64,000 nucleotides of DNA, taken from Candidatus Sericytochromatia bacterium (GTDB lineage: Bacteria; Cyanobacteriota; Sericytochromatia; S15B-MN24; UBA4093). The stretch spans positions 1 through 64,000 of the forward strand of contig JAKFBU010000014.1 of assembly GCA_036676985.1 (NCBI GenBank), given 5' to 3'. Of this stretch, positions 1-16,021 are shown in pieces; position 1 is the first letter of the stretch, and the number at the start of each line of letters is the position of its first letter. The notes under the pieces were generated by a model, which made no database searches, was not told the DNA's origin, and worked only from the letters and a program-made list of their open reading frames with translations. A program made the position numbers and the translations under genes.

Positions 1-15
1 CCCAAAAACACCAAT

Positions 16-42
16 CCCCGCCGAGCTTTCGCCTGGCGGGGG
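16..42 (-). terminator. Rho-independent terminator of the candidate large ncRNA
   Basis: Minus strand reads CCCCGCCAGGCGAAAGCTCGGCGGGG followed by ATTGGTGTTTTT. Confidence 0.65.
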
Positions 43-650: not shown

Positions 651-655
651 TATTA

Positions 656-684
656 ACCATACCGCATCCCGCGGCGCTTGGCAA
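656..684 (-). promoter_or_regulatory. sigma70-type promoter for the candidate ncRNA
   Basis: TTGCCA-17 nt-TATGGT on the minus strand; same -35 hexamer as the tRNA-Pro promoter. Confidence 0.6.
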
Positions 685-772
685 GCTTTTGGTTAAAAAA
701 AGATTTTAGAAAGCTTATGATCGCTCAGCAGCGCCGGTGACCGAGGCCCGATCGCGTCAGTCACAACGCCGC

Positions 773-985
773 TTAAGCCTTCTTCAGGAACTCGGTCTTG
801 AGGACCAGACCCTTGACCTTCTCCGCATTGCACTCGATCTCGTGCTCGTTGTCGGTCAAGCGGATGTTCTTGATGAGGGTGCCGCGCTTCAAGGTCGTAT
901 TGGCGCCCTTCACCTTCAAGTCCTTGGTGAGGTGAACGGAGTCGCCGTCGTTGAGCACGTTGCCATTGCAGTCCTTCGTCGCCAT
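773..985 (-). CDS. PhnA/YjdM C-terminal-domain protein (alkylphosphonate utilization family), 70 aa
   Basis: KDCNGNVLNDGDSVHLTKDLKVKG...LKTEFLKKA signature; SD AGGAG upstream. Confidence 0.85.
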   Translation of the reverse strand: MATKDCNGNVLNDGDSVHLTKDLKVKGANTTLKRGTLIKNIRLTDNEHEIECNAEKVKGLVLKTEFLKKA

Positions 986-1012
986 TTGTTTCTCCTGGGG
1001 TATCGGAAAGCC

Positions 1013-1166
1013 AAAGATAAGATGGCCAGCAGTTAGAAGCCCTGCTGGCCATCTTATCTTACCGCATGCGCGGAGTCGGAGCGGCGGGATTTGGATTCCG
1101 GTCGAGGCACCCCAGGCCACCACAACACTTGGAACCCTGATCCACAAGCTGCTCTTGGCCGCTTGA
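1013..1166 (-). repeat. att-like repeat copy 1: tRNA-Pro 3' fragment plus double hairpin (1013-1090) and conserved flank (1091-1166)
   Basis: GCCAGCAGTTAGAAGCCCTGCTGGC...GGAGTCGGAGCGGCGGGAT matches 15846-15911. Confidence 0.9.
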
Positions 1167-1339
1167 TCCGCCGCCGACTCCTTCGGTCACCGGTGAACTT
1201 GGCCGCGACGGCTCCCTCGATCCCAAGCACGGTGACGTCCCAAGCAACGTCTAGACCTTGCCCACGAACTTGTGGTCGCCTCGCCTGGGTGTCGGCTACG
1301 CACGCATCGCCGTCAGTACCATCACGGCGTAGGACATGG

Positions 1340-1523
1340 TGAAACGCCCCCCAACGCGTCGATGGCCACCCCGATGTCCTCGAGCAATCCTTCGGCGGCC
1401 TTCTCCAAGCGCGCCATGTTGCCGTCGACGGGCGGCAAGCCCCCCGAAGGCGATCGCCCCCAGCTTCAAGAAGAGCAGGGCCAATTCCGAGCGGGGCACC
1501 TGGGTGGGGACTCGGCTCGTCAC
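1340..1523 (-). pseudogene. Truncated chromate transporter (ChrA) N-terminal fragment
   Basis: ELALLFLKLGAIAFGG resembles the ChrA N-terminus; similarity is lost right after; coupled to the doxX stop; left boundary approximate. Confidence 0.5.
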
Positions 1524-1960
1524 TTCATCTTCGACAGGATGAATCGATCCAGGGACCACGGCCCGGCTCCCACGCCGAGCAGGAAGAGGCTGCCCAGGAG
1601 CATGGAGTAGTCCGTTCGCATGGCATGCGCCATCTCCCAGAACCCTTCGTTCCGGAGGATGGGTAGCTTGGTCGTGACGATGGCCACCCCCATGATGGCG
1701 AGGGTGGGAAGCACCGCGAGCCTCGTGAACAGGCCCACGAGGATGGCGAGGCCGCAAAGGGTCTCGAAGGTCCCCACGAAGGGCCCCAGGAAGTCGGGGT
1801 TCGGGAGCCCGATCGTGATGAACCGCCCCGTGCCGCGGGTGGCGGGGAAGAGGAACTTCTGGATGCCCTCCGAGAGGAAGACGCCCCCGACCATGAGGCG
1901 GATGAGCAGGGTGGCCGGAGGAGCGGTGGTGAGGAGGATCTGCTTGAGGGGTTGGGTCAT
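1520..1960 (-). CDS. DoxX family membrane protein
   Basis: LLIRLMVGGVFLSEGIQK...GAGPWSLD pattern, four hydrophobic segments. Confidence 0.85.
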   Translation of the reverse strand: MTQPLKQILLTTAPPATLLIRLMVGGVFLSEGIQKFLFPATRGTGRFITIGLPNPDFLGPFVGTFETLCGLAILVGLFTRLAVLPTLAIMGVAIVTTKLPILRNEGFWEMAHAMRTDYSMLLGSLFLLGVGAGPWSLDRFILSKMK

Positions 1961-1982
1961 GTGATGCTCCTGGCTGGGCGTG

Positions 1983-3548
1983 CTAGTAGCTGTGCTTCAT
2001 GAGGTGGTGCAGGAACCCCGCGTAAGGCTCGGGCTTGCCCAGACGCTCGGTCGGGGTCGCGTCGATGCGGGAGGCCATCGCGATGAAGGACCGGACCTGC
2101 TCATGCATGAACCCGGCATCGAGCCGATCCAGGTAGCCGTTGTCGCCCACCGCGCAGAGGTAGTCGGGGGCGGGCACGAGGGCGATGTTCGGGATGCCCG
2201 CCTCGAAGAGCGGCTGACCCTCGCCGAAGTGAAACCCGTTGACGGGCCTCAGGGTGATGCTGCGGACCTTGGTGCGGCCAGCGAGCGAGTCCAGGTAGAT
2301 GCGATCCATCATCGGGTTGCCAGTGTACACCAGCTCGGTCTCCAGGCGACCGGTCTCGCGTGCGGTGCTGTGGTCGTCCGTATCCCGCCACTCCTTGCAA
2401 CCCAGGTGCTCGATGGTGAGGCCGGCGACCGCCCGCTTGTGGCCGTTCTTGCCGTCCCACAGCTCCGGGTGGTCATGGAGCCAGCGCGTGCTGGCTTGCT
2501 CGTGCCCATGTCCGAACTGGGGCAACTGGAAGTGGCCGGTGACGAAGGCGAAGACCAAGTCGCGCCGCCGGCTCTCCACGGGCTGGCGCGCGAAGTGCGA
2601 GGCCATCGCAAGCAGGCCGACCGCGCCGTTCTCCTCGGTGGCGTTGGGGCCATCGGTATGGGTGTTGACCAGGATGCTCTCGGTGCCCGACGAGCCCGGC
2701 AGGATGGCGTAGAGCGTATCGGTCGAGGCCGCGGCGTCGACCTCGGCATCGAGCACCATGCGGACCTTGGCCCGCGCGGCCGCGAGCCGCTTGAGACGAT
2801 CGCCCGTGGGGCCGTCGACCCAGAGGGCGGGACAATCCTTGAGCGCGGTCGTGAACGGAAGGTACTGTCCCCGGACGGTCGCGGGCGAGAGGTCCTTCCA
2901 GACCGCGATCACGCCCACCGCACCGGCAGCCTTGGCCCGCTCGAGATCCGGGCGCTTCAGCACGCTGCTCACGACCGGGCTGCTCACCCAGAAGGGGATG
3001 TCCTCGCTGGCCGGCATCGCGCTGCGCTTCTTGAAGAGCAGGAAGGAGGGCAGGCTCGAGACGGAGACCTCCACGAGCGCGATCTTGCCGGCGGCCCCGC
3101 GGAAATCCCCCGGAGCGGCTCCGCACGGCACCACCTCGGCGACCACCCCCTCGGCGCCCGTCGTCCCCGAATACGGAAAGTAGGCCGCCACCGGCAGCGA
3201 TTGGGGGCCCTTGGACGGGTCCGCGACCGTCAGGCTCCACCGACGGGGCTCCCACTTGGTGAAGGGGTGGCGATCCCGGTGGACCGCGAGCCCCATGCGC
3301 CGCACCTCCTGCTCGAGGAAATCGATCGAGTCCTGGTGCGCCTTCGACCCGGTCAGCCGGATCCCGAAGCGGTTGAGTGCCTCTTGCCAAGCCCACACCT
3401 GTGCCTGACTGGGGAGGGTGGCGGTGTCGGACATGGGTCGAGCCTCTACTGGCGCCGCCGCGGGCGAAACCCTCGTCGCGAGGGGGGCGACGAGATACAG
3501 CCCGGTGACGGTCGCTATGGTTCCAATCGTTGTCAGGACTCGGTTCAT
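1983..3548 (-). CDS. Exported PA-domain / M28-like peptidase family protein
   Basis: N-terminal hydrophobic segment; PA-domain GKIALV..AKAAGAVGVI; HTDGPNATEENG. Confidence 0.6.
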   Translation of the reverse strand: MNRVLTTIGTIATVTGLYLVAPLATRVSPAAAPVEARPMSDTATLPSQAQVWAWQEALNRFGIRLTGSKAHQDSIDFLEQEVRRMGLAVHRDRHPFTKWEPRRWSLTVADPSKGPQSLPVAAYFPYSGTTGAEGVVAEVVPCGAAPGDFRGAAGKIALVEVSVSSLPSFLLFKKRSAMPASEDIPFWVSSPVVSSVLKRPDLERAKAAGAVGVIAVWKDLSPATVRGQYLPFTTALKDCPALWVDGPTGDRLKRLAAARAKVRMVLDAEVDAAASTDTLYAILPGSSGTESILVNTHTDGPNATEENGAVGLLAMASHFARQPVESRRRDLVFAFVTGHFQLPQFGHGHEQASTRWLHDHPELWDGKNGHKRAVAGLTIEHLGCKEWRDTDDHSTARETGRLETELVYTGNPMMDRIYLDSLAGRTKVRSITLRPVNGFHFGEGQPLFEAGIPNIALVPAPDYLCAVGDNGYLDRLDAGFMHEQVRSFIAMASRIDATPTERLGKPEPYAGFLHHLMKHSY

Positions 3549-3560
3549 GAAAGCGGCCGC

Positions 3561-4979
3561 CTAGTGCTCGGTCGCCGCCGACAGGACGATCCGGGTGATC
3601 GTGCGGGTGCCCTTGGCCAGCTGATCCACGGTGATGTACTCGTCGTCGCCATGCACCGTCTCGAGTTGCTCGCGGCTGCAGACGATGGGCCCCAGGCCGT
3701 AGGCGCGGATGCCCCGCGCGCGGAAGTAGGCCGAGTCGGTGCCGCCCGTCGAGATCATGGGCGTGACCCGGATCGTGGGGTACTCGGCCCGGATGGCATT
3801 TTCCAGCACGCCGTAGAAGGCAGACTCGCGCGGGCTGCGCGTCGGCTCGGACGAGGAGAGGATCCGCACCGCGATGCCGGGGTCGGCCATGCGCTCGCGC
3901 AGCGCTGCGAGCACCTCGGCAGCCGTCGTGCCGGGCAGGTAGCGCACGTCTACCTGCGCGCTCGCGCGTCCGGGCACCACGTTCACCTTGCTGCCGCCCG
4001 ACAGCACCGTTGGATTGACCGTGGTGCCCAACAGCGACGCGAGCACGGGCTCGCTCGAGACGGCGGCCGGGCCCACGAGTCCGAGCATGCCAGGCCAGTC
4101 CAGGTGCTGCAGGACCCAGCGCCGGACGCCCGTCTCCCCCTCGCCGATCGCCGACAGCATCTCGCGGCTCTCGGGAATGAGGGTCAGCGGTAGCGGCCGC
4201 GAGGTGAGGCGCTCCAGGGCCCGGACCAGCCTCACGGGAGCCGCCTGCGGATTGGCGACCGAGCCATGCCCTGGCTTCCCTTCGGACGTGAGCTCGAGCC
4301 ACAGCACGCCGCGCTCGGCAGTCTGGATGCCCATCACCTCGGCGCCATTGGCGAAGCGCAGTCCGTAACTGCCCTCGTTGAGGATGTCCGAGGCTTGCAC
4401 CGCCTCGGGGTGATGCTCGAGCAGCCAGCGCGCGCCTGCCCAGCCGCCGGCTTCCTCATCGGCGACCGCGACGAGCAGGACGTCGCGCCGCAAGGCAACG
4501 CCCTGGCGTTTCAGCTCCAGGAAGGCCATCAGCTGCATGAGCCCCAGGCCCTTCATGTCGAGCGCGCCGCGCCCGTAGAGCCGACCGTCCTTGAGCACGC
4601 CGTCGAAAGGCGGTACGCTCCAGCGCGCGGCGTCTGCCGTGACGACGTCCACGTGGTGCAGCAACATGAGCGGCGGTTCGTGGCCGCTGCCCTTCAAGCG
4701 GGCCACCAGGCACTGGCGGCCAGGGGCCGAGTCGTAGACGTCCGAGGCGATGCCTTCTCTGGTGAGCCACTGGCGCAGCAGGGCGATCGCCTGGGTCTCG
4801 TTGCCCGGCGGGTTGGTGGTGTCGACCTTCAGGTAGGCCTGCAGCTTCTCGGTGGCCTCGGGACCACGGTCGGGAATTCGGCCGACACGGTCGTCGGCCA
4901 TCCCCTGGACCGGTTGCGCGAGCAGGAGGCTCGCGGCGAGCAAGAAGGCGGCTGCGCGGAAACGCAGGGAAACGAACAT
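3561..4979 (-). CDS. M20/M25/M40 family metallo-hydrolase with signal peptide
   Basis: HHVDVV, YGRGALDMKG, DEEAGG, GGTDSAYF and HGDDE motifs. Confidence 0.9.
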   Translation of the reverse strand: MFVSLRFRAAAFLLAASLLLAQPVQGMADDRVGRIPDRGPEATEKLQAYLKVDTTNPPGNETQAIALLRQWLTREGIASDVYDSAPGRQCLVARLKGSGHEPPLMLLHHVDVVTADAARWSVPPFDGVLKDGRLYGRGALDMKGLGLMQLMAFLELKRQGVALRRDVLLVAVADEEAGGWAGARWLLEHHPEAVQASDILNEGSYGLRFANGAEVMGIQTAERGVLWLELTSEGKPGHGSVANPQAAPVRLVRALERLTSRPLPLTLIPESREMLSAIGEGETGVRRWVLQHLDWPGMLGLVGPAAVSSEPVLASLLGTTVNPTVLSGGSKVNVVPGRASAQVDVRYLPGTTAAEVLAALRERMADPGIAVRILSSSEPTRSPRESAFYGVLENAIRAEYPTIRVTPMISTGGTDSAYFRARGIRAYGLGPIVCSREQLETVHGDDEYITVDQLAKGTRTITRIVLSAATEH

Positions 4980-5043
4980 GCCGGGCTCCTGGGCTGACGA
5001 GCGGATGGTCGCCCATCAGTCTACGACGTCACAAGCGCTCGAG

Positions 5044-5769
5044 CTAGATGTCGAGCGACACCTTGCCGTTGCGACGGAGGTTCTCGTAGCTCATCCAAAA
5101 CACCACCGCGCGCCCGTCGGAGTAGTGCACGCGAGTGGGCATCAAGGTGCGGCCGTCGATCCAGGCCTCGAGGGTACGGCACCCGTTGAGCAGCTTGGGG
5201 CCACCGACCAGGAGGTGGTATCCCGTCGGGGTCGAGTCGGCGGCGAGGACGGTGTTGGCGGGGTCCATAAGCTGCCCCAGCGTTTCGGGCACGAGAATCT
5301 GGTTGATGCGATAGCCGCGCACGGACATGACCTTGGGGTCGTCGAGCGACAAGGTGACCACCAGGGGGCTCAAGAGACCGCCCGGGCGGGCCTTGAGCGA
5401 GTTGCCGCCCGTGTAGAGCAGGCGCGAACCCTTGCCGTTACCTTCCTGGACCACGATCTTGACCGAGTTGCCCTTGCCGGCGATCTGGTACAGGCCGTTC
5501 GAGGTCTTGGTGTCCTGGCTCTGGAAGTAGCGCAGCGTCACCTCGTAGCCCGGCATACCGCGGAAGGCGGTGAGGGACTGGCCGATGAGCTGGCGGACCT
5601 GTTCCTGAATCTGGGGCGAGAGCGGGGCGCCGGGTGCCGTGGGCGGGGACGTCGGTCGGCTTACAGGGGGCTCGGTCGGCTCGGGAGTGACGACTCCCGT
5701 CTCGCCCAATCCGCACCCGCCGACCAACAATCCCAAGGCGAGAAGAACCCATGACATGCGCGTCTGCAT
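5044..5769 (-). CDS. Lipoprotein, possibly LolA-like fold
   Basis: Lipobox LVGGC, Pro-rich linker, C-terminal WID..TLMPTRV..Y.NL..N pattern. Confidence 0.6.
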   Translation of the reverse strand: MQTRMSWVLLALGLLVGGCGLGETGVVTPEPTEPPVSRPTSPPTAPGAPLSPQIQEQVRQLIGQSLTAFRGMPGYEVTLRYFQSQDTKTSNGLYQIAGKGNSVKIVVQEGNGKGSRLLYTGGNSLKARPGGLLSPLVVTLSLDDPKVMSVRGYRINQILVPETLGQLMDPANTVLAADSTPTGYHLLVGGPKLLNGCRTLEAWIDGRTLMPTRVHYSDGRAVVFWMSYENLRRNGKVSLDI

Positions 5770-5933
5770 ATCGCTTCACTCTCCCGTGACTTGCCGAACG
5801 GTCGTCCCCATGGAGACCGTCCCTGCTTTATCGTTATGATAAGGTTAAACTGTATTTAAGGCAAGTTAATTTTCCGACGGAGGCACCCCGCGCTGCCGAC
5901 CCATGCTTGGCGGGTGGCATCTCGAGAGGCGGG

Positions 5934-5949
5934 GTCGGAGCGGCGGGAT
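5934..5949 (-). repeat. att-like repeat copy 2 (partial; tRNA-Pro 3' fragment only)
   Basis: GTCGGAGCGGCGGGAT is identical to 15896-15911. Confidence 0.75.
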
Positions 5950-5997
5950 GGGCACCATGGGTTATGCCCCCGGAACCCCAATCGTGTGGGTGTCCGG

Positions 5998-7146
5998 TTA
6001 GAGCTGCTTTAGCACGACCTGGTCGATCCAGTAGCGAAGATACGTGTCCGTGATGGCATACTCATCGCCCCTACGGAGCTCGACCAGCTCCTTTTCCTTG
6101 AGACGGGCCAATGCGCCCTGCACGGAGGAGGCCGGTCCAAGCTGGTGATCGCGGCGGTAGCCCTCGGAAAATAGGTTGCCGGAGCCTTTGGATAGTGCGA
6201 TCAATAGCGACTTTTGTCGTGCCGAGAGCTCGTCCCATAAGATCGTGTAGCGGGCATCCTCTGCCGCGACGATCCGGGAAAGCGCCTCGTTGACTGTCTC
6301 TTCCGTCGGCTCGATGCCGCGCGCCTGACAGAGCGCCCATGTGAAGTGGGCGAGTTGCTGGGTATCGTTGGGATGACAGGCCGTGATCACGAGGATACGT
6401 TCGATCGCTTCATCGGAGATGTGCTTGCCGGTCGACTCGAACCGCTGGCGGAGGAAGGTGGCAAAGTCCGCGGGGCGGAAGGGATGCAGCGGAACGGTCT
6501 TCGCGGACTTGTACATCGGCTCGTTGATGTTGTTGAACAAATCGTTCATGAGGTGGAACTTGCTTCCCAGATAGACGTGTGAAACGTCGGTCTGGTGCTG
6601 GAATATCGTGCGCATCCGAGCGATCAGGTGCTTGTCGATAGCGACGATCTCCTGGAACTCGTCGAGGATGAGGACGACGCGCTTGTTCTTGTCCTTGGCG
6701 ATCTTGGCGGGCATTGCCAAGAGGACTTCGAGGTCGCGGTCCAAGTCGGCTTCCGAGCGCCCTGGTGCGAGCTCGAGGGTGGGAGTCCCGTCCGCGCCCA
6801 TGGAGAGCTTTGGGGTGACGGAAAGGCCCCGGAACGTCTCGGCCAGACCCTTGAGCTTCTGTTGATAGGGTGAAAGCAGACCGGAATACAGAGCCCTAGC
6901 CAGTGCTTGCACGAAGCTCGCCTTGGTGGGCGTCCCGAAAAGATCGAGGTAGGCCACCAGGACGCCTTGTTTCCTGAGTCGATCGATGACGGTTAGAATC
7001 AGCGAGGTCTTGCCGAGGCGTCGCGGTGACATCACGACCACGTTTTGGCCGCTCCGCAAGTCTTGCTCGAGTTCGGCGAGCTCTTCGGTCCGGTTGGTGA
7101 AGTGATCGCCCGAGACCAGCTCGCCGTAGCGAAAGGGATTATCCAT
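5998..7146 (-). CDS. P-loop ATPase (archaeal-ATPase/AAA type) with C-terminal winged helix
   Basis: NPFRYG..FTNRTEEL, Walker A SPRRLGKTS, Walker B LILDEFQ; SD before the ATG at 7146. Confidence 0.85.
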   Translation of the reverse strand: MDNPFRYGELVSGDHFTNRTEELAELEQDLRSGQNVVVMSPRRLGKTSLILTVIDRLRKQGVLVAYLDLFGTPTKASFVQALARALYSGLLSPYQQKLKGLAETFRGLSVTPKLSMGADGTPTLELAPGRSEADLDRDLEVLLAMPAKIAKDKNKRVVLILDEFQEIVAIDKHLIARMRTIFQHQTDVSHVYLGSKFHLMNDLFNNINEPMYKSAKTVPLHPFRPADFATFLRQRFESTGKHISDEAIERILVITACHPNDTQQLAHFTWALCQARGIEPTEETVNEALSRIVAAEDARYTILWDELSARQKSLLIALSKGSGNLFSEGYRRDHQLGPASSVQGALARLKEKELVELRRGDEYAITDTYLRYWIDQVVLKQL

Positions 7147-7230
7147 CGGTCTCCCCTTTACTTGATCCTTGGTTACGTTCCTTTTCGTAACCAATAATAG
7201 CGTAATGGTAGGCGAGAGGGAAGACAAACG

Positions 7231-7375
7231 AAAGACGGCCAGCAGTTAGAAGCCCTGCTGGCCGTCTTATCTTACCGCTTGCGCGGACTCGGGGCGGCGG
7301 GATTAGGATTCCAGTAGGGGCACCCAGCGCCCCAAGGCGTGGAACGTGAACCATCCGGCACTCTTGCTTCCAAAG
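7231..7375 (-). repeat. att-like repeat copy 3 with flank
   Basis: AAAGACGGCCAGCAGTTAGAAGCCCTGCTGGCCGTCTT...TCGGGGCGGCGGGAT followed by CCAGTAGGGGCACCC. Confidence 0.9.
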
Positions 7376-7429
7376 TGGTCTAAGCCAACTTGACAAGAGC
7401 CATCCAGAGCAGCCTCACCCTCCAACCGA

Positions 7430-8419
7430 TCAAAATTCGAAGACCTCCAGCGGAACGAGCGATGTATCTCCGTTCTCGCCGTCAGGTCGGATCGCGTAGA
7501 CATGGTGGGAGTAATAGTCGCCTGGCTGGTAGCGGAGGCGGCCCTTAGGGCCCAACGTGAAGATGTAGACCGTCGTTTCGCCTGTGATCGGATCATCAAA
7601 CGGCGCCATGAGTACCCCGGGCCGCCAGCGCGCGGTCAGGCCCTGTTGCCCGCCCAAAAACGGATAGCCATACTTTTCTCTCATCTGCCAGTCGACGAGG
7701 AAGCCATTGAGCTGCGTGGTCCAAGGATAGGACATGCCGGAATGGGAATTCATCGTCACCGTGACCCAGCCGACGACCGGATCCTTGAACGAGAGATTCA
7801 TCGCGTAGAACTCGTACAGGAATTGCATCACGTCCGCTCGCGTCGGCATGTCGGTCGGGCCGCCCACCAGCGGGACCACGGGGCCGAGTCCGAACGTTCC
7901 CGGTCCCGGGACCTGAAAGATGACACCTTCCGGCCCCGATAGCGCGAAACTGCCACTGGCTTGCATCCAGCCATCCTGACCTCTCGTGAGGACCCCCAGC
8001 GTTTCGGACGTAATGGCACCGACCACACTTGCGGTGGCGGGCATTTCGACCTGCAGTCTGACTGGAAGGCCAGGGGTCGCCTCCACCACGAATCCGGTCC
8101 CGTTCTCGATGCCCTGCTCATCAGGTAGCAAGCGGAGCGTCACTTGGGCCGAATAGGAGGCCGCGGAGCGGGGCGCAAATAGGGTCAGAGCGCGGTCGGG
8201 CAGGTGCCACGCTCCGCCGTCGTTCGTCACCTCGAAGGGTTGCCCGGCGCCTACTTGGATAGGGGCGGGACGTTCCAACGAAATGGGGGAGGCCTCCGGT
8301 GTCGGAGTGGAACTAGGGGATGCTCCTTGGGAGACCTTGGTGATGGTGGATGGGGAGGTGCATGCGCTGACCATGAGGGTCGTCAGGAACAGAATGCGAG
8401 CAAATGTTCGTTTGAGCAT
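7430..8419 (-). CDS. Hypothetical lipoprotein
   Basis: Signal peptide with lipobox VSAC, then a Ser/Pro-rich linker; no family recognised. Confidence 0.6.
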   Translation of the reverse strand: MLKRTFARILFLTTLMVSACTSPSTITKVSQGASPSSTPTPEASPISLERPAPIQVGAGQPFEVTNDGGAWHLPDRALTLFAPRSAASYSAQVTLRLLPDEQGIENGTGFVVEATPGLPVRLQVEMPATASVVGAITSETLGVLTRGQDGWMQASGSFALSGPEGVIFQVPGPGTFGLGPVVPLVGGPTDMPTRADVMQFLYEFYAMNLSFKDPVVGWVTVTMNSHSGMSYPWTTQLNGFLVDWQMREKYGYPFLGGQQGLTARWRPGVLMAPFDDPITGETTVYIFTLGPKGRLRYQPGDYYSHHVYAIRPDGENGDTSLVPLEVFEF

Positions 8420-8508
8420 AGGAGGGTTGTACCCGCTGGTCAGCCAACCAATGCTTGCTCGATAGAAGCACGGATCGGGGTGTCTGAAAGCGGGACGGTT
8501 CTCCATGC

Positions 8509-8660
8509 AAAAAGAAAGACGGCTAGCAGTTAGAAGCCCTGCTGGCCGTCTTATCTATCCGCTTGCGGGGAGTCGGAGCGGCGGGATTCGGTTTCCAGTC
8601 GAGGCACCCCATGCGCCAAAGTCTGGAATGTGCTTCACGAGCTACTTTTGGCCTCAAAGC
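8509..8660 (-). repeat. att-like repeat copy 4 with flank
   Basis: Same hairpins; identity to the tRNA extends to GGGATTCG (8590); flank CCAGTCGAGGCACCCC. Confidence 0.9.
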
Positions 8661-8680
8661 TAGCTAGGCTTCTCAGCGAC

Positions 8681-9343
8681 TTAGTCACCACTGCACCCGC
8701 AGCAAGTGTCACGACCCGCTGCGCGGTCGAAGGCTTCCCGACCTTCGCCGACTATCCAGTAGAGGATGCCGAGAGCGGCCAGCGGGTCGGCCCACCACCA
8801 GCCCAGAAACTTGGTGACCAGCAAGCCGACCAAGAGCGTGGCGGACATGTAGGCACAGACCCAGGTGCAGCTGGCTTCCGCCTTGAGGGCTTCGCTGCCG
8901 ACGGACGTGCCGATGCGCTTCTTGGCGATGGCGATGACGGGCATGATGACGACCGACGCGACGGCAAGGCCGATGCCCAGAGGGCTCGGGTTGGACTCGG
9001 TACGGGTCCAGAGCGTTACGGCTGAACTGACGGCGATGATGGCGGCCAAGGCGTAGAAGACGACGCCTGCCCACCAGTTGGCTCGACGCTCGAGTTGCTC
9101 GACGCATTCTTCATCGGCACCACGGGCCTCTGTTACAAGACGCCACACCAGGACCGCTCCCAGCGCCCACTCGATGATGCTGTCCAGGCCGAAGGCCTCC
9201 AGCGAGACGCTGCGGTCGTGATACCCAGCCCACAAGGCCAGGAACATCTCGATGGTGTTGTACGCCATCGTGATGAGGACGAGGGTCAGGCCGACCGTCA
9301 GGTGCTTCTGGTGCTGGTTCTGGCTGGTAGTCGGGATGCTCAT
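8681..9343 (-). CDS. Cation transporter (CDF-like, membrane domain only)
   Basis: SVSLEAFGLDSIIE, SEALKAEA, GWWWADPLAAL; Cys-rich tail CCGC. Confidence 0.8.
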   Translation of the reverse strand: MSIPTTSQNQHQKHLTVGLTLVLITMAYNTIEMFLALWAGYHDRSVSLEAFGLDSIIEWALGAVLVWRLVTEARGADEECVEQLERRANWWAGVVFYALAAIIAVSSAVTLWTRTESNPSPLGIGLAVASVVIMPVIAIAKKRIGTSVGSEALKAEASCTWVCAYMSATLLVGLLVTKFLGWWWADPLAALGILYWIVGEGREAFDRAAGRDTCCGCSGD

Positions 9344-9368
9344 AAGGTCACGTCGAGGGCGAGAGCGG

Positions 9369-10487
9369 CTACGGATGGCGGGGTCCTGTCGAGCAGTCTG
9401 GAACAGGAACCGGCCCCTCGGGTTCTCCAGGGAAGAGCCGTTGCTTGAGCCAGAGCGAGACGTAGACTAGGGCCACTAGGGCGGGAACCTCGATGAGGGG
9501 GCCGACGACCGCCGCCAGGGCCTCGGAGGAAGCGATACCGAAGATGCCCACCGCCACCGCGATGGCCAACTCGAAGTTGTTCCCCGCCGCCGTGAAGGAC
9601 AGGGCCGCGGTCTCCTGGTAGTTGAAGCCCAGGGCCTTGCTCACGGCGAAGGCCAGGAAGAACATCACCAGGAAGTAGAGCACCAGCGGAATGGCGATGC
9701 GGACCACATCCATCGGCAGGCCCACGATCTTCTCACCCTGCATGCTGAACATCAGCACGATGGTGTAGAGCAATCCGACCAGGGCGGTCGGCCCCAGCTT
9801 GGGCATCAAGACGTTGTCGTACCAGTCCCGCCCCTTCAGGGACACCCCCACGTTACGGGTGATGGCCCCCAAGGCCAGCGGGATGCCCAGGAAGATGAGC
9901 ACGCTCTTGGCGATGGTCCACATCGAGACGTCCAGTGCCGTAGCGGCTCCGCCCAGCCAGACTGGTAGGACGGTCAGGAAGAAGTAGCCCAGCACCGAGT
10001 ACATCAGGATCTGGAAGACCGAGTTGAGCGCCACCATGATGGCCGCCGCCTCGCTGTCTCCCTTGGCAAGCATGTTCCAGAGCAGCACCATTGCGATGCA
10101 GCGGGCCAGGCCAATCATGATGAGGCCCGTTCGGTAGTGGGGCAGGTCGGGCAGCAGGACCCAGGCCAGGGTGAACATCACGACCGGCCCCAAGACCCAG
10201 TTGAAGAGCAGCGAGGCCCCGAAGAGCTTGCCCTTGGCGGCGAAGGTCCCCAGGGTTTCGTACCGGACCTTGGCGAGCACCGGGTACATCATCCAGAGCA
10301 GCCCCACGGCGATGGGCAACGACACGTCGGCCACCTTGATGGTGTCGAGCGCAGGGCCGATGCTGGGGAAGACCTTGCCGAGCAGGATGCCCAGCCCCAT
10401 GGCGACGAAGATCCAGACGGGCAGGAAGCGGTCAATGAGCGACAGCTTCCCGACGATGTTCTTGACCTGAACGGCTTCTGTGGCCAC
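9369..10487 (-). CDS. acr3: ACR3 family arsenite efflux transporter
   Basis: MMYPVLAKV, GLARCIAMV, GNNFELAIAVA, GPLIEVP. Confidence 0.95.
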   Translation of the reverse strand: MATEAVQVKNIVGKLSLIDRFLPVWIFVAMGLGILLGKVFPSIGPALDTIKVADVSLPIAVGLLWMMYPVLAKVRYETLGTFAAKGKLFGASLLFNWVLGPVVMFTLAWVLLPDLPHYRTGLIMIGLARCIAMVLLWNMLAKGDSEAAAIMVALNSVFQILMYSVLGYFFLTVLPVWLGGAATALDVSMWTIAKSVLIFLGIPLALGAITRNVGVSLKGRDWYDNVLMPKLGPTALVGLLYTIVLMFSMQGEKIVGLPMDVVRIAIPLVLYFLVMFFLAFAVSKALGFNYQETAALSFTAAGNNFELAIAVAVGIFGIASSEALAAVVGPLIEVPALVALVYVSLWLKQRLFPGEPEGPVPVPDCSTGPRHP

Positions 10488-10488
10488 G

Positions 10489-10815
10489 CTACAACTCCTC
10501 GAAGATGGCCATCGGCGCCTTGGCGGTGTCGGTGGCCTTGTAGTAGTTCCAGCGGCCCTGCTTGCGGGACGTCACCAGGCCCGCCTGTTGCAAAACCGCA
10601 AGGTGGTGCGAAAGGCTACCCTGGGGCATCCCGAGCGCGTTCATGAGGTCGCACACGCAGACCTCTTGGTCGTTGACCAGGTGGAGGAGTTTCAACCGGA
10701 CCTCGTCACCCAAGGCCTTGAACACACGTGCCTTCTCGGCCAGGTTTTGAGGGAAGTAAGCCGCCGTTGCCAACGGCTCGCAACACGTTTCGGACGGCTT
10801 GAGCTCCTGGTTCAT
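10489..10815 (-). CDS. arsR: ArsR/SmtB metalloregulator
   Basis: FKALGDEVRLKLL, EVCVCDL, SHHLAVL..AGLV. Confidence 0.9.
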   Translation of the reverse strand: MNQELKPSETCCEPLATAAYFPQNLAEKARVFKALGDEVRLKLLHLVNDQEVCVCDLMNALGMPQGSLSHHLAVLQQAGLVTSRKQGRWNYYKATDTAKAPMAIFEEL

Positions 10816-10825
10816 CAGATCCCCC

Positions 10826-10860
10826 TTGACGGATCAGGATGTATCGAATAACTTCGATGC
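10826..10860. promoter_or_regulatory. Divergent ars promoter with ArsR-type inverted repeat
   Basis: TTGACG at 10826; ATCGAA-taac-TTCGAT palindrome at 10843-10858. Confidence 0.6.
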
Positions 10861-10916
10861 ATCCGATTTTACTGATTTGATTTGTGACCGTCAAGCTGAA
10901 CCAAATGGAGGGCACC

Positions 10917-11414
10917 ATGTTCAAGATGCACGTTTCCCTGAATGTGGCCAACGTGGCCAGGACCGTCGACTTCTATCGCAAATTCTTCGGTACCGAGCCC
11001 GTGAAGCTCAAGCATGACTACGCCAAATTTGAACTCGCGGACCCCCCGTTGAACTTCACGATGAACGAGCGTCGGCCCGATGATTCGGGCGAACACGGAA
11101 AGCTGTCGCACTTGGGATTCCAAGTTGAAGGCCACGGCGACGTTGAGGCCGCTCGCAAGCGCTTTCGAGCGGCGGGCCTGATTTCTCTCGATGAAAAGGA
11201 CACCGTCTGTTGCTATGCCCGCCAGGATAAGGTTTGGGTCACTGACCCTGACGGCAACCGTTGGGAGGTCTTCTTCGTGACAGACGCTGATATCGACGCA
11301 GCAACCTTCCAGGGGGATGCCTGCTGTGTCCCGCTCGAAGCGGCCGACGGCGATGCTTGCTGTACACCTGAGACCAAAGAACTTGCGGTGGCCTCGAAGA
11401 AGGGTTGCTGCTGA
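10917..11414 (+). CDS. arsI: ArsI/CadI family glyoxalase-like protein (C-As lyase type)
   Basis: HVSLNV, LSHLGFQV, vicinal CCYARQDKVWVTDPDGNRWE. Confidence 0.85.
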   Translation: MFKMHVSLNVANVARTVDFYRKFFGTEPVKLKHDYAKFELADPPLNFTMNERRPDDSGEHGKLSHLGFQVEGHGDVEAARKRFRAAGLISLDEKDTVCCYARQDKVWVTDPDGNRWEVFFVTDADIDAATFQGDACCVPLEAADGDACCTPETKELAVASKKGCC

Positions 11415-11827
11415 TGATGAAGGTGCTTTTCGCCTGCGTTCACAACACGGGCCGTAGTCAGATGGCCGAGGCTTTCTTCAACCACATGGCCGACCCCGAC
11501 AAGGTTCGGGCGGTTTCGGGGGGGACAGAACCGGCCACCGGGATGAACACGACAGTCATCGAGGCCATGAAGGAAGTTGGAATCGACCTGGTGGCCGAAG
11601 GTCATCACCCGAAGTTGGCCGACCTGGAAGAGCTGTCGCCAGGGGACCGGGCCATCTCGATGGGGTGTGGCGTGCATCTGGCGTGCCCTGTCCAGCTGGC
11701 TGGACTTGAGGATTGGAGCCTGGATGATCCGAAGGGCCTGCCTATCGAGCGGGTCCGTGAGATACGGGATGCCATTAAGCAGCGGGTTGAGGACCTGGTT
11801 CACGAACTGGGTGTCCAGCAATCCTGA
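11414..11827 (+). CDS. arsC: Arsenate reductase, LMW-PTP family
   Basis: CVHNTGRSQMAE and DWSLDDP motifs. Confidence 0.9.
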   Translation: MMKVLFACVHNTGRSQMAEAFFNHMADPDKVRAVSGGTEPATGMNTTVIEAMKEVGIDLVAEGHHPKLADLEELSPGDRAISMGCGVHLACPVQLAGLEDWSLDDPKGLPIERVREIRDAIKQRVEDLVHELGVQQS

Positions 11828-11841
11828 CGCCCTGATCCCAG

Positions 11842-11921
11842 CAAAAAGAAAGACGGCCAGCAGTTAGAAGCCCTGCTGGCCGTCTTATCGATCCGCTTGC
11901 CCGGAGTCGGAGCGGCGGGAT
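11842..11921 (-). repeat. att-like repeat copy 5
   Basis: Full double hairpin plus tRNA 3' fragment; flank degenerate. Confidence 0.9.
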
Positions 11922-11969
11922 AGGTGCTCGGAGGTTTCCCCCTACACACGAGGCGGTCGAAAGATTTCC

Positions 11970-12117
11970 TTGACAGAGAGACAGAGGTGTGGCAGGATCC
12001 GGACGCTCCAACCCGAGGAGGTCCCGACCGCGATGTAAACCGAGACATACGGCTATACCCCCAGAACGCAGGCGCGCCGCAAGACGGTCGCAGCCGACGT
12101 GCAATGCGAGGACCCGT
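11970..12117 (+). promoter_or_regulatory. Promoter and leader of the ABC-F gene with an SD-preceded ATG-TAA minigene
   Basis: TTGACA-17-CAGGAT (11970-11998); GAGGAGG at 12015-12021; ATGTAA at 12033-12038. Confidence 0.5.
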
Positions 12118-13614
12118 ATGTCTCTCCTTTCCGCGAGCCGGACGACGTTCCGGCATCCGGCCATGCCGGAGAATCTCTTCTCGGACGTCACCTTCACCAT
12201 TTCGCCGGGCGATCGGATCGCCCTCGTCGGTCCCAACGGGGCTGGCAAAACGACGCTGCTCAAGCTCTTGACCGGTGCACTCTTGCCAACAGAGGGGGCC
12301 ATCGTGCGGCGGCGCGGCTTGCTCGTCGCGACGATGGACCAGGTCTCCGAAGCACCTTCCGATCGATCCCTCTTGGCCCATGTCGTGGAAGCAGAGCCGG
12401 ATGGCGCCGAATGGCGCGCCGCGATGGTGCTGGAGGGCCTGGGTCTGCCTGCCTCCATCCACGACGCGCCATGGGGCACGCTCTCCGCGGGCCAGCGCTC
12501 GCGCGGCATGCTCGCAGCGCTGCTCGTCGCCCCTGCGGATCTGCTCTTGCTCGACGAACCGACCAACCATCTTGACGCGGAGGGTCGCGACTGGCTTGAG
12601 GCATGGCTGCCACAACAGGACAGCGCCGTCGTGCTCGTCTCCCATGATCGAGCCTTTATCGAGGCCTCTGCCTCGCGGATCTTCGAGCTACGTCGCGGCA
12701 CCCTTACCCTTCACGAGGGTGACTACGCCAACTTCCGTGAGGCCAAGGCCCTTGCCGATCGTCAGGCATGGGCAGCCTTCGAGGGTCAGCAGCGCCGCCA
12801 GGAGGCGGCCACGCGGGCAGCGGCGAAGCGCACGGCTCTTGCACAGGACGTCGCGAAGGCCCCGAAAGGTCCAGGGCTTGGCGATAAGTCCTTTTACAAG
12901 GCCAAGGCCGCGAAAGTAGCGAAGTCGGCAAAGATCATCCAGGCACGGGCCGAACGAGAACCCGTGGCTCCAAAGCCGGTCCTCGACGATGCCATTCCCG
13001 TCTTGGACTGGGGGTTCGTGCGTCGATCGGGCGAAATGCCACTGGCGGTCAGGGGGCTCGCAAAAGCCTACGGCGATCACGCCCTCTTCGAGGAGATCAG
13101 CTTCGACCTTGGGCGTGGCGAGCGGCTGGCCGTCCTCGGACAGAACGGAGCGGGCAAGACGACCCTGATCCGCCTCCTACTCGGCCTCGAACCCGCGGAC
13201 GTCGGGGAGGTCGTTTGGGGACATGGCGCTCAGCCCGGCTGGTTCGGGCAGGAAGCGGAGCAACTCGACCCGGCGATTTCGGCGCTCGAAAATTTGCTTC
13301 AAGTCCGCCCTGACCAGGGGCGGGCCAGGCTTCTGCTCGCGTGTCTAAGGTTGCGCGGGGAGCGGGCATTTCAGCCGGTAGGCACCATGAGTGCAGGGGA
13401 GCGCGCCAAGGTCGCACTCGCCAAACTCTTACTCAGCGGCGCCAACGTGCTTCTACTCGACGAGCCCACGAACCACCTCGATCTCGATACCCGCGAGGCC
13501 ATTGAAGCGACCCTCGCAACGTATCCAGGGGCGATCGTGCTCGTGAGCCACGATCGACGCTTCATCGAGGCGATCGCCACGAGGACCCTCACGTTGGGGC
13601 CTCCTGAAAGGTAG
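12118..13614 (+). CDS. ABC-F ATPase, ribosomal-protection-like
   Basis: Two ABC domains (GPNGAGKTT, GQNGAGKTT; two LLDEPTNHLD), no TM segments, extended Lys/Ala-rich interdomain linker. Confidence 0.9.
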   Translation: MSLLSASRTTFRHPAMPENLFSDVTFTISPGDRIALVGPNGAGKTTLLKLLTGALLPTEGAIVRRRGLLVATMDQVSEAPSDRSLLAHVVEAEPDGAEWRAAMVLEGLGLPASIHDAPWGTLSAGQRSRGMLAALLVAPADLLLLDEPTNHLDAEGRDWLEAWLPQQDSAVVLVSHDRAFIEASASRIFELRRGTLTLHEGDYANFREAKALADRQAWAAFEGQQRRQEAATRAAAKRTALAQDVAKAPKGPGLGDKSFYKAKAAKVAKSAKIIQARAEREPVAPKPVLDDAIPVLDWGFVRRSGEMPLAVRGLAKAYGDHALFEEISFDLGRGERLAVLGQNGAGKTTLIRLLLGLEPADVGEVVWGHGAQPGWFGQEAEQLDPAISALENLLQVRPDQGRARLLLACLRLRGERAFQPVGTMSAGERAKVALAKLLLSGANVLLLDEPTNHLDLDTREAIEATLATYPGAIVLVSHDRRFIEAIATRTLTLGPPER

Positions 13615-13615
13615 G

Positions 13616-13690
13616 TCCGGGAGCAGCGGGATGCTTACTCCCGTGGAGGCACCCCTTGCCACCAATGCGCAGGCATTCATCCGCGAGCTG
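13616..13690 (-). repeat. att-like repeat copy 6 (partial; tRNA fragment plus flank, hairpins missing)
   Basis: GGAGCAGCGGGAT followed by CCCGTGGAGGCACCCCTTGCCAC. Confidence 0.75.
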
Positions 13691-14145
13691 CGACGTGATC
13701 GCTCGCCACTCGGAGCCGCGTTTTGGTAAGCCTGAGGGTCACTCATGGGGCTGACCGCAAGGAATGCGAGCGCATGGCCAAGCCCCACGGCCATGAGTTC
13801 GACGCGGAAATCGGCCACCCATGGGGCAGACGGTCCACGAACCGACGCGGGCAGACAACGCGTGGGCTTCGCCCGCTCGTTCGCGGTCGATCGTGAGCAA
13901 CTGCGGGGGGCATCTGTAGGCCACACCGGAGCCGGGAGAGCAAGGCCAGCTCCTCCTCCGAGCTCAACGCGTCTCCGAGCCAGGAGCTTCCGAGGCTCAC
14001 CCCGGCCACACGACCGAACTTGAACGCACCCTTCGGGAGAGGCTGTGCGGGGAAGGACGTCGCACCGCGCAGCGGCTCGTCCCGGATGCCGCGAACAAAA
14101 GCTTTTAACGGATGTACTTGCTGTCTGCCGCAGTAGGGGGACCGG

Positions 14146-14294
14146 CAAAAGAAAGATCGCCAGCAGTTAGAAGCCCTGCGGGCGATCTTAGCTATCCGCT
14201 TGCGCGGAGTCGGAGCGGCGGGATGGTTACTCCGAAACAGGCACGCCTTGCCACAAAGGCCCAAGATCTGGTCCACGAGCTGCTTCTGAGCTAG
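14146..14294 (-). repeat. att-like repeat copy 7 with flank
   Basis: Full double hairpin, tRNA fragment to 14224, flank ending CACGAGCTGCTTCTGAGCTAG. Confidence 0.9.
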
Positions 14295-14297
14295 CAG

Positions 14298-15785
14298 TCA
14301 GGGGCTAATGACTTCGATATGGAACCCATCCTCCCCGCGTCCCAGAACCGCTTGTTGCGCGCGCAACTTGAAGCCGGGCTGATCGACCTCAAGGCTTCCG
14401 GAGGCGGCCGAAGAGCCTGCAGGAAGTGGTATTCCATTTACCCGGATTGCGCTTGGCTCCAGATTTCGATATAGCTCGATCTTCAGTTCCTTGGGCATGC
14501 TGTGTCGGATCGCGATGACGTTCTCCATCGACAGCACAGGCTGCTTCGTCTTAGCGTGCGTGAACTCGAGAAGTTTACCTCGGGTAAGTCGGCGACCACC
14601 TGCCATGTCCCACGACTCGATCCACGAACCTCCCATCGAGACGAGGTGGGATGGCAGCTTCAGCGATAGACGCAGAGCTCCCTGGCTCCGGTACGCCGTC
14701 ATGACCTGCTCAATCTCTCGGGACTCCTCGGCGGCCTTGGCTTGAAACTGAGCCTTGTAGCGAGACAACTCTTGGTCGAAGTTAGCGTGATTCCCCAGTT
14801 GCTGAAGGATCTTTTCGGGGCGGTGTTGATAACCCACGGCCTCCGCGAGCAGTCCATCAAGAGAGTCCACGTAATCCGAGAAACGCCCTTTCCATTCTGG
14901 CATCAATCGGTCCAAGAGATGGCAGACCGCCGCACCCATAACGTAGTACCGCGAGCGATCCGCCTCTTGAGGCTTCTCAAGGGCCTCTTTCAGCCTGGAT
15001 GTCGTATAGGCGATGTGATTGGAAGTTCCCTTTGGGTGGTTTCTCTCGAAGAACTTGTCCGTCAGGTACTGGGCCGTGCCTTCCGTTACAGTCATGCCTT
15101 GCCGGTAATCAGCATATTTCTTCGGGATCATGCTTTCGTGCTTTTGACGAACCGCCAGGTAGAGCAGGGCTCCGGTCTTGAGCGAGTTCGGGTTGGTTTC
15201 CCCGATGAGACGTGCGAGAAGGGAGGCTTCGAGCTGTGTATAGGCGAAGTCTTCAGCGTCGAGAATGCGCTCGTCGCCACTCGCCATCCGGTGCATGAAG
15301 CTTTCTTGGACCGTGAAGTGGAAGGTTTCGTGGAACAGCGTCAGGAACTCGTGGATCGGATCCAAGGTTTCAGCCGTATTAGCTTGCGCCAGTTGTTTCA
15401 CGATGAAGACGCGTTCGCCATCGACATTCTTCTCGACCCAGACGTTATCCGTCGCGAGCCCCAAGCGTCGTATGGTCTCGCCTTCAAGTCGCGTGACGCC
15501 AGCCAACGACGGAACAGGCTGCCCATTGAGCTTAATGGAAGAGCTCCCTCGGGAAGCGTTCAACAGGTAGTAGGCATCCCCATTCCCGTAGATCAGAGTG
15601 AAAGCAGTGGGATCGTACCCAGGCCAAATCGGCTCTTCTTTCGCTTTTTCCAGGTAGCCAACGAGGCGAGTTAGGATCGCTGCGTCATTCGATGCTGTTC
15701 CTACAGCCGCATGGATTGGTTGAGACCATGTGGAAAGCGAGAAAATGAGAGAAATTGCGAGGACCAATCGAATTTTGTTGCTCAT
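14298..15785 (-). CDS. Secreted protein, putative zinc metallopeptidase
   Basis: Signal peptide ending PIHA; HETFH (HExxH) with downstream EGTAQY. Confidence 0.65.
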   Translation of the reverse strand: MSNKIRLVLAISLIFSLSTWSQPIHAAVGTASNDAAILTRLVGYLEKAKEEPIWPGYDPTAFTLIYGNGDAYYLLNASRGSSSIKLNGQPVPSLAGVTRLEGETIRRLGLATDNVWVEKNVDGERVFIVKQLAQANTAETLDPIHEFLTLFHETFHFTVQESFMHRMASGDERILDAEDFAYTQLEASLLARLIGETNPNSLKTGALLYLAVRQKHESMIPKKYADYRQGMTVTEGTAQYLTDKFFERNHPKGTSNHIAYTTSRLKEALEKPQEADRSRYYVMGAAVCHLLDRLMPEWKGRFSDYVDSLDGLLAEAVGYQHRPEKILQQLGNHANFDQELSRYKAQFQAKAAEESREIEQVMTAYRSQGALRLSLKLPSHLVSMGGSWIESWDMAGGRRLTRGKLLEFTHAKTKQPVLSMENVIAIRHSMPKELKIELYRNLEPSAIRVNGIPLPAGSSAASGSLEVDQPGFKLRAQQAVLGRGEDGFHIEVISP

Positions 15786-15830
15786 CGAGGGCTCCATGCT
15801 TGAAGCTAGCCCTAGCTTCATACCCGATCG

Positions 15831-15876
15831 CAAAAAAGAAAGACCGCCAGCAGTTAGAAGCCCTGCTGGCGATCTT
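15831..15876 (-). terminator. Terminator-like hairpin downstream of tRNA-Pro (prototype of the repeat hairpin)
   Basis: Minus strand AAGATCGCCAGCAG-ggcttctaa-CTGCTGGCGGTCTT followed by TCTTTTTT. Confidence 0.8.
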
Positions 15877-15896
15877 ATCTATCCGCTTGCGCGGAG

Positions 15897-15970
15897 TCGG
15901 AGCGGCGGGATTCGAACCCACGACCCCCACTACCCCAAAGTGGTGCGCTACCAAGCTGCGCTACGCCCCG
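15897..15970 (-). tRNA. tRNA-Pro(GGG), CCA not encoded
   Basis: CGGGGCG/CGCTCCG acceptor stem; anticodon arm CCACT-TTGGGGT-AGTGG; GGTTCGAATCC T-arm. Confidence 0.95.
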
Positions 15971-16021
15971 AAATGTTTGTTTAAGCTGGGGTAAATGCTT
16001 GGGTTGCCCAAGCAGGTACTC

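Follow-up and report, generated by a model that had tools for sequence, protein, structure and literature searches.

How does a single tRNA gene come to stand at the head of a row of small genes of unrelated function, each closed off by a copy of the tRNA's own 3' end and none accompanied by a recombinase? The question is raised by the tRNA-Pro(GGG) locus of a Candidatus Sericytochromatia bacterium (NCBI GenBank assembly GCA_036676985.1, here G000), a soil bacterium represented by a metagenome bin of 79 contigs with 5% contamination. We analysed the first 64,000 nucleotides of its contig JAKFBU010000014.1 (C14), referred to below as the window, in which an earlier sequence-only reading had seen an integron-like array of gene cassettes anchored on this tRNA. 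Forty relatives were scanned for comparison, nine from the same family and 31 from other families, and all compared genomes were short-read metagenome assemblies. We consider it probable, with rather better than even confidence, that the array arose by the serial insertion at the T-loop of integrase-less cassettes bounded by attachment (att) sites, each restoring the tRNA end and its terminator, with the recombinase supplied in trans and the distal sites decaying.

A site family confined to tRNA-Pro(GGG)

The sole tRNA of the window, tRNA-Pro(GGG), lies on the minus strand at positions 15896-15970 and is intact (ARAGORN; 59.7 bits against the Rfam tRNA model). Rfam found no other known RNA in positions 1-17000. 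The last 15 nt of this tRNA are repeated seven more times in direct orientation and bound units of 0.6-4.9 kb (4859, 1354, 1284, 3334, 1711, 592, and 1687 bp). A search with the 15-mer, allowing up to two mismatches, gave nine matches, compared with 0.66 expected from 100 shuffles (maximum 3), and seven of the nine fell inside the array. Six of these are exact (ending at 1090, 5949, 8587, 11921, 14224, and 15911) and the one ending at 7303 has a single mismatch. The matches at 25722 and 57318, with two mismatches each, fall outside the array and look like chance. An eighth core, ending at 13632, has degenerated to 12 matches in 15 bases and was accepted as real because its flank fits the shared arm model at E = 7.7e-17. 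The repeat positions and unit spacings given by the sequence-only reading were thereby borne out.

Read in the direction of the tRNA, a site consists of a P arm, the 15-nt core, and a trailer, P'. The P' (~70 nt) is made up of a small GCAA-capped hairpin followed by a long G+C-rich terminator hairpin and a T-run, and is carried by six sites, the tRNA itself and the copies ending at 1090, 7303, 8587, 11921, and 14224. A type 1 P arm of ~85-95 nt is present on five sites (1090, 7303, 8587, 13632, and 14224), the copy at 11921 carries a type 2 P arm of ~47 nt, and the copy at 5949 has a diverged arm and no P'. The whole repeat module measures 85-180 bp, with copies 80-96% identical. Profile models of the P arm and of the core plus P', built from the sites of seven genomes, recovered the double hairpin that had been noticed downstream of five copies and the tRNA, as well as the flank shared by five copies on the other side.

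When these models were run over all 79 contigs of G000 with nhmmer, every strong match lay at the array (P arm 5/5, P' 6/6), and the one weaker match outside it was a lone P' hairpin on the adjoining contig C18. To the question, raised with the first description of the array, of whether further copies exist in the genome, the answer is that the sites form one family found only at tRNA-Pro(GGG). The family is therefore not a dispersed repeat of the repetitive extragenic palindrome (REP) or miniature inverted-repeat transposable element (MITE) kind, a candidate that we ruled out since copies are not scattered.

Alignment of the eight copies showed an invariant block running from the last two bases of the T-loop to the end of the tRNA, with divergence immediately upstream. 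The left edge of identity was sharp and, whatever the arm type, fell on the same T-loop bases, in agreement with the earlier claim that identity begins in the T-loop. The T-loop is a known crossover sublocation of tRNA-targeting integrases. A sharp boundary is what would be expected of such a crossover, because only the part to its right must rebuild the tRNA. The P' side would be held by selection, because each unit beside the tRNA supplied the last 15 nt, the trailer, and the terminator; with that side constrained and the arm side free to drift, the simplest reading would place the crossover in the T-loop.

The two arms appear to differ in origin. The type 1 P arm resembles the anticodon and variable region of tRNA-Pro and is, to judge by this resemblance, probably a diverged copy of the tRNA from anticodon to T-arm. 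The native trailer is homologous to P' in genomes that carry no array, namely G003 and G006 (genus g3) and G011 and G013 (another family). Among 27 trailer sequences the terminator stem showed compensatory changes in 6 of 10 pairs, and the GCAA loop of the small hairpin was constant above covarying stems. P' is on this evidence a functional tRNA trailer and not foreign DNA. An RNAalifold prediction in which TGGGGTG of the P arm pairs with the core as an acceptor-stem mimic was dropped, as its pairs never vary; stems of at least 7 bp occurred in ~8% of random windows (385/5000), and the G-run of the arm is better explained by its resemblance to the diverged anticodon and variable region.

Relatives, extent of the island, and cargo

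Homologous arrays were found at the same tRNA in six of the nine other family genomes (G001, G002, G004, G005, G007, and G008), which belong to three genera. The 31 genomes of other families had no array, and their matches were confined to the tRNA part of the query. The arrays contain 2 to 8 recognisable cores and further fragments, and a few lone P'-like hairpins occur on other contigs of G002, G004, G005, and G008. A pattern scan of public genome contigs returned one match, which was the contig of G002; a metagenome scan returned two, one of them informative and of the same design; and a scan of viral contigs returned none. The same design was seen in seven assemblies made independently and in an additional metagenome contig. 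In genus g3 the UvrD-DUF327-tRNA context is orthologous and there are no copies within 12 kb downstream. G003 was rejected as a clean empty site, as the upstream flank is common and the downstream flank is not.

Comparison across these relatives, proposed with the first description of the array, showed gain, loss, and reordering of units, with many of the breakpoints falling at sites, chiefly in G000. The unit encoding a 511-amino-acid (aa) protein, which carries a P' remnant of its own and the same arm, is adjacent to the tRNA in G000 and distal to the ABC-F unit in G008, with the arsenic (ars) unit on the other side. The order of the YjdM and ABC-F units is reversed between G000 and its congener G001. 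Units for an LCM methyltransferase, a pseudouridine synthase, a dioxygenase, and a DNA-alkylation-repair protein are shuffled among G002, G004, G005, and G007, and four units are permuted between G004 and G007, both of genus g4. The first units of the six arrays that include the tRNA had no block of at least 200 nt common to any two. Cassettes common to G000 and G008 were 82-89% identical, compared with 72-81% for three core genes, which hints at exchange between genera.

The island extends beyond the window. Positions 1-123 are an exact match to the end of C18 (34013-34135), so the island continues on that contig and C14 and C18 could be merged. C18 adds ~17 kb of cargo, up to a nitronate monooxygenase gene that is the conserved far flank in G004 and G007. 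This cargo has homologues inside the arrays of other genomes (an Rrf2 and methyltransferase pair, APH, a pseudouridine synthase, and a metallo-beta-lactamase-fold protein with TetR). The C18 stretch holds one site fragment only and no recombinase among its 19 open reading frames (ORFs). Taken together the two parts give a whole island of ~33 kb, of which the window holds the tRNA-proximal and best-preserved half. In all six arrays the sites that are well preserved are found no farther than roughly 10-18 kb from the tRNA, and the distal cargo up to the conserved flank has site fragments only. This gradient fits the earlier proposal that the newest units stand next to the tRNA.

The ORFs of the units were scanned against Pfam, NCBIfam, and PHROGs, with results that uphold the description of unrelated accessory genes without a recombinase (Table 1). 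No transposase or recombinase family of Pfam was found in 22 ORFs from 1-18.3 kb or 43 ORFs from 16-64 kb, so none is recognisable in the window, as had been stated. By a heuristic choice of ORFs, 12 of 15 array genes run parallel to the tRNA and the ABC-F gene runs opposite to it; a common direction is no rule, because the arrays of relatives have mixed directions.

The 511-aa gene next to the tRNA is 81.6% identical in nucleotides to its homologue in G008, which occupies a distal array position. The protein had no match in Pfam, NCBIfam, PHROGs, or PDB sequences, the Atlas gave unnamed clusters only, and a single-sequence AlphaFold model was unusable (pLDDT 34.5). It was considered and rejected as a novel cassette-encoded recombinase, there being no family match and an N-terminus resembling a signal peptide. 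The two fragments in unit 2 correspond to a stretch of G008 that holds a DUF3370 gene (L034:5632-7215). The YjdM mini-cassette is also present in G001 (L036, PF03831), between two sites 378 bp apart. Other cargo of relatives includes ArsR/AHSA1 pairs, a glycosyltransferase, a HEPN/MNT pair, a YhcG nuclease, and two insertion sequence (IS) elements, in addition to the shuffled genes named above.

Two further observations concern individual arrays. That of G007 contains two complete and identical tRNA-Pro(GGG) genes ~6.8 kb apart (L032:12199-12276 and 19025-19100), the inner one with a different trailer. In G008 the first unit after the tRNA contains a full phosphoenolpyruvate carboxylase gene (L034:15559-18354), followed by a P'-only site, which is an odd location for a central metabolic gene.

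Table 1. Sites and units of the array in the window (E-values refer to the profile models).
Feature	Positions	Strand	Description
Site 0	15826..15911	-	Last 15 nt of the tRNA (core) and P'; P' model E=2.8e-25; repeat family D1
Site 1	14142..14307	-	P arm type 1 14225-14307, core 14210-14224, P' 14142-14209; E=6.9e-24 (arm), 3.2e-22 (P')
Site 2	13620..13705	-	P arm type 1 (E=7.7e-17), core 12/15, P' missing
Site 3	11836..11968	-	P arm type 2 (~47 nt), core, P' (E=7e-24); arm also at a site of G001
Site 4	8501..8666	-	P arm type 1 (E=9.5e-21), core, P' (E=9.8e-25)
Site 5	7221..7380	-	P arm type 1, core with 1 mismatch, P'
Site 6	5929..5949	-	Core, 21-nt identity, arm diverged, P' absent; family D4
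Site 7	1005..1170	-	P arm type 1 (E=1.1e-18), core, P' (E=3.7e-22)
Unit 1	14298..15833	-	511-aa protein, no known family, hydrophobic signal-like N-terminus
Unit 2	13706..14141		No intact gene; 13846-13909 and 13916-14068 match L034 (blastn)
Unit 3	11989..13614	+	ABC-F ATPase, ribosomal-protection-like; ABC_tran; NF000355 397 bits (cut-off 380)
Unit 4	8681..11821	-	Metal/arsenic operon (Pfam, NCBIfam)
Unit 4, 202-aa unknown	11213-11821		
Unit 4, ArsI-like lyase	10884-11414	+	
Unit 4, ArsR	10489-10815		
Unit 4, ACR3/SBF	9369-10487		
Unit 4, CDF transporter	8681-9343		
Unit 5	7430..8506	-	358-aa protein; no family found
Unit 6	5998..7227	-	409-aa STAND-type ATPase (ATPase_2, AAA_22, AAA_16)
Unit 7	1520..5769	-	241-aa unknown, M20 peptidase, 521-aa unknown, DoxX; host-like GC ~0.70
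Unit 8	773..1004	-	Small YjdM/PhnA zinc-ribbon gene (TIGR00686)
Island continuation	1..772		Leads into C18

Candidate recombinases and competing explanations

We propose that the variable island of ~33 kb would have grown through successive site-specific insertions, at tRNA-Pro(GGG), of small cassettes able to circularise. A cassette would comprise a tRNA 3' end (15 nt) with P', one gene or a small operon as cargo, and a P arm of ~50-95 nt. A crossover in the T-loop would join the 5' part of the host's tRNA to the cassette's own tRNA end and terminator. Because the crossover brings the cassette's tRNA end with it, the tRNA would remain intact and earlier cassettes would be displaced outward. 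Between tandem sites, units could then be excised, moved, or deleted by the same enzyme or by RecA, and distal sites would decay by deletion. We infer circular intermediates, and activity at present, as parts of this scheme. The enzyme would act in trans and would most plausibly be supplied by a transient element that bears an integrase and shares the target site, similar to an 8-kb element in G005.

That element is the tRNA-adjacent unit of the G005 array and encodes two recombinases, a large serine recombinase of 598 aa and a Xer-like tyrosine recombinase of 307 aa. The next unit in G005 is 0.8 kb long, has no recombinase, and carries the same arm type as the 8-kb unit. The ORF of the large serine recombinase (L035:568-2364) runs antisense through the whole tRNA-Pro gene and takes its last ~40 residues from the attachment junction, so excision would change the C-terminus of the protein. 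The large serine recombinase was rejected as the enzyme of G000, which has no relative of it. The tyrosine recombinase was rejected as a common trans enzyme, since its close relatives occur only in genus g2, in ordinary islands of 10-16 kb at tRNA-Ser and tRNA-Asn. Integrase elements that target tRNA ends therefore circulate in the family, and one of them uses the tRNA-Pro site. To the units with type 1 or type 2 arms no enzyme could be assigned.

G000 itself has five Phage_integrase matches, two of them Xer-like and the others on C62, on C41, and beside tRNA-Met (broken). The C62 integrase adjoins tRNA-SeC and was rejected as the trans enzyme. The C41 integrase (P4-like, with an arm-binding domain) was rejected as well; it has no tRNA or tRNA fragment nearby, and relatives in two of the nine family genomes. 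In whole-genome scans, C14 and C18 were both without a match to Phage_integrase, Resolvase, or Recombinase. Beside mutS2 (C61:8470-9288; L053:2971-3792) lies a gene for a 273-aa protein that has Resolvase and Recombinase domains. Of 47 genomes of the class, 43 have one copy of this gene, with an identity that tracks phylogeny from 92% down to 37%, and the protein looks like a domesticated serine recombinase. As an array enzyme it was rejected: the gene is not array-specific, because it is also present in genomes without arrays.

Reads were compared through Logan contigs, with six runs containing 40-99% of the sampled words. In run X2 the pieces break at every site, each ending inside a site, at an equal depth of 32-37, which fits one array in one population. 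Joints at 7267>15896 (run X5), 14228>15834 (run X4), and 13095>15902 (run X2) have sides of 20-24 nt that lie within repeats, and therefore give no support for excision or an alternative order. No excision or circle junction was seen among these contigs.

Several results weigh against serial insertion by an enzyme acting in trans. No recombinase of G000 could be tied to the array sites by the whole-genome domain scans. Among the array-bearing genomes there is no common integrase, nor are any of the five of G000 conserved across them, so that this part of the sequence-only reading gained no support. A type 1-arm unit with an integrase was found nowhere in the genomes examined, and no autonomous member of the type 1 family is therefore known. 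As the genomes are metagenome assemblies and the X2 pieces break at the sites, cassette order rests on the assemblers' repeat resolution and is not fully secure. Many breakpoints in G004 and in parts of G007 lie far from recognisable sites, with arm fragments only, and the contrast in identity between cassettes and core was drawn from three core genes. The repeats are also long enough for RecA-driven exchange, which would give the same shuffling.

The usual view of tRNA-linked islands is that they are the burial ground of large elements that bore an integrase, and the units could accordingly be leftovers of larger islands, with separate histories of insertion and deletion, that were never small cassettes. 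Recombinase-bearing tRNA islands of 8-16 kb do exist in the family (at tRNA-Pro and tRNA-Ser in G005 and at tRNA-Asn in G008), many sites are visibly decaying, with core or P' lost, and in G000 the broken integrase gene adjoins tRNA-Met, whose tail is copied 10.8 kb away. The literature, in the part available to us, also regards integrase-less units bounded by att sites as decayed elements (PMC5704250). In the units here no integrase or conjugation remnants were seen, and the sites in decay lie distally. Against decay, five units of the window, and at least ten type 1-arm units in the genomes examined, have both arms intact around one gene and contain no integrase fragment. Units down to 378 bp are bounded by complete sites, and the same small units with the same arms occupy different array positions in different genera. 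Decay, which the sequence-only reading had given as its alternative, is weakened by these intact arms around single genes and we now think it unlikely.

Homology alone could also move units, if the tRNA end, trailer, and arm act as portable homology by which RecA exchanges units between repeats or after DNA uptake. The length and identity of the repeat module would allow this, and the homology of P' with the native trailer means that incoming DNA has ~85 nt in common with the target. The P' variants are genus-specific, as expected from gene conversion, and no dedicated recombinase was found. Against this, the sharp left edge of identity, located at identical T-loop bases whatever the arm type, is typical of a site-specific crossover, homology leaves the origin of the first unit of each arm type unexplained, and RecA would erode arrays of direct repeats rather than build them. 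We hold exchange by homology as the sole mechanism to be improbable.

An assembly artefact, in which the repeats caused mis-joins or chimeric contigs and the array is not in one cell, is very improbable: the bin is fragmented and partly contaminated, eleven of its contigs end in tRNA genes, and the X2 contigs break at each site, but the X2 pieces are all of equal depth and each ends inside a site, the design recurs in the independent assemblies and the further metagenome contig, and the junction of the ABC-F and 511-aa cassettes in G008 crosses a deleted site in unique sequence.

A second array, known systems, and meaning

A second array of the same design, with five direct copies, is present in G000 at tRNA-Gly(TCC) (C39:184444-191182; L048:645-7383). 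Here a copy consists of ~60 nt of that tRNA with its own hairpin arm and terminator, and the sites are 80-95% alike. The units measure 1252, 1090, 800, 828, and 2694 bp and hold small unknown genes, two of whose products are paralogous at 43% identity; no recombinase was found in them. The design is thus seen at more than one tRNA. The tRNA-Gly array is absent from the nine other family genomes, and the cassette design at this tRNA looks recent in the G000 lineage. Three of its units (L048:~760-830, ~3100-3170, and ~3900-3970) have a common motif right after the terminator, in which repeated GAAAC words end in the inverted repeat ATGAAACA...TGTTTCAT; the motif may be an operator or promoter element.

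Other tRNA loci of G000 were noted in the same survey. At tRNA-Met (C76:145150-156072) the broken integrase lies alongside, the tail copy is found 10.8 kb downstream, and the locus looks like a classical decayed island. At tRNA-Lys(TTT) (C27:293478-294235) a tail copy with one mismatch lies 0.68 kb downstream. Eleven contigs start or end in or at tRNA genes (C6, C9, C10, C26, C30, C39, C56, C59, C64, C67, and C68), which suggests that the DNA next to many tRNAs of the population varies among strains or is repeated.

The closest described concept is the cis-mobilizable element (CIME) in tandem accretion, here miniaturised and multiplied. CIMEs of the ICESt1/ICESt3 family are, in the account available to us, single decayed integrative and conjugative elements (ICEs) or integrative and mobilizable elements (IMEs) beside a functional element (PMC5704250). 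As in that account, the units are bounded by attL/attR-type sites, contain no integration or transfer genes, and stand in tandem at a tRNA 3' end, with a regenerated target beside the newest element (PMC5704250). In our array the bounding sites are direct repeats of the tRNA 3' end, the tRNA is regenerated intact, and five internal sites carry both arms. Unlike the CIMEs described there, at least eight units of 0.4-4.9 kb, mostly of one gene, stand in a row, two arms are conserved across unrelated cargo and three genera, and the island has no conjugation or integrase gene.

Tycheposon-shaped islands, integron cassettes, and dif modules can be regarded as functional analogues. Tycheposons, as far as the cited text describes them, carry their own tyrosine or large serine recombinase and often a replication module, and integrase-less partial tRNAs in Prochlorococcus are interpreted there as remnants (bioRxiv 10.1101/2020.12.28.424599). 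The Prochlorococcus islands, in the same text, resemble ours in belonging to the cyanobacterial phylum, in lying next to tRNAs with partial tRNA copies between elements, in niche-related cargo, and in newer arrivals displacing older ones inward (bioRxiv 10.1101/2020.12.28.424599). Unlike tycheposons as described there, the regular unit here has no recombinase: none of the units in the window encodes one, and both recombinase types were found only in the 8-kb unit of G005. The dif modules, in the descriptions available, are bounded by Xer-binding pdif sites and occur mainly on Acinetobacter plasmids. They are likewise small accessory modules without a recombinase, bounded by recombination sites, thought to be moved by a host enzyme, and shuffled among replicons, whereas here the sites are directly repeated tRNA ends, all at a single locus of the chromosome.

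Integron cassettes also form arrays of small, mostly one-gene units with one site each and no recombinase, the newest beside the insertion point and the site downstream of the cargo in the circular form. In contrast, our array is anchored on a tRNA and has no adjacent integrase gene (C14 gave no Phage_integrase match), attI, or Pc promoter. Its sites are tRNA-derived direct repeats and not attC inverted repeats, and the pairing of P arm and core, which would be the attC-like fold, shows no covariation. A terminator precedes each unit, and gene direction is mixed in relatives. The term integron-like, used in the first description, is therefore an analogy only. A limited collection of literature was searched and contained no comparable description.

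A broader proposal would make the locus an integron-like platform of the whole family, in which cassettes of one gene are taken up, cut out, and rearranged by an outside recombinase that acts at the T-loop of tRNA-Pro(GGG) and, in G000, at that of tRNA-Gly(TCC) as well, with the replacement tRNA end and terminator serving as the recombination site. The enzyme might then be encoded by the host, for example Xer or the 273-aa protein. We consider this broader form quite improbable.

The unit that recurs at this locus is one gene flanked by a full set of attachment arms and lacking an enzyme, a design that occurs in three genera and at two tRNAs of one genome. If the enzyme is indeed supplied in trans, bacteria would have a second, integron-like route by which to collect and reshuffle single accessory genes, here genes for metal and arsenic handling, an ABC-F protein, a STAND ATPase, and secreted proteins. 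The arrays would then also offer a concrete model for how 'non-element' material accumulates in cyanobacterial tRNA islands.

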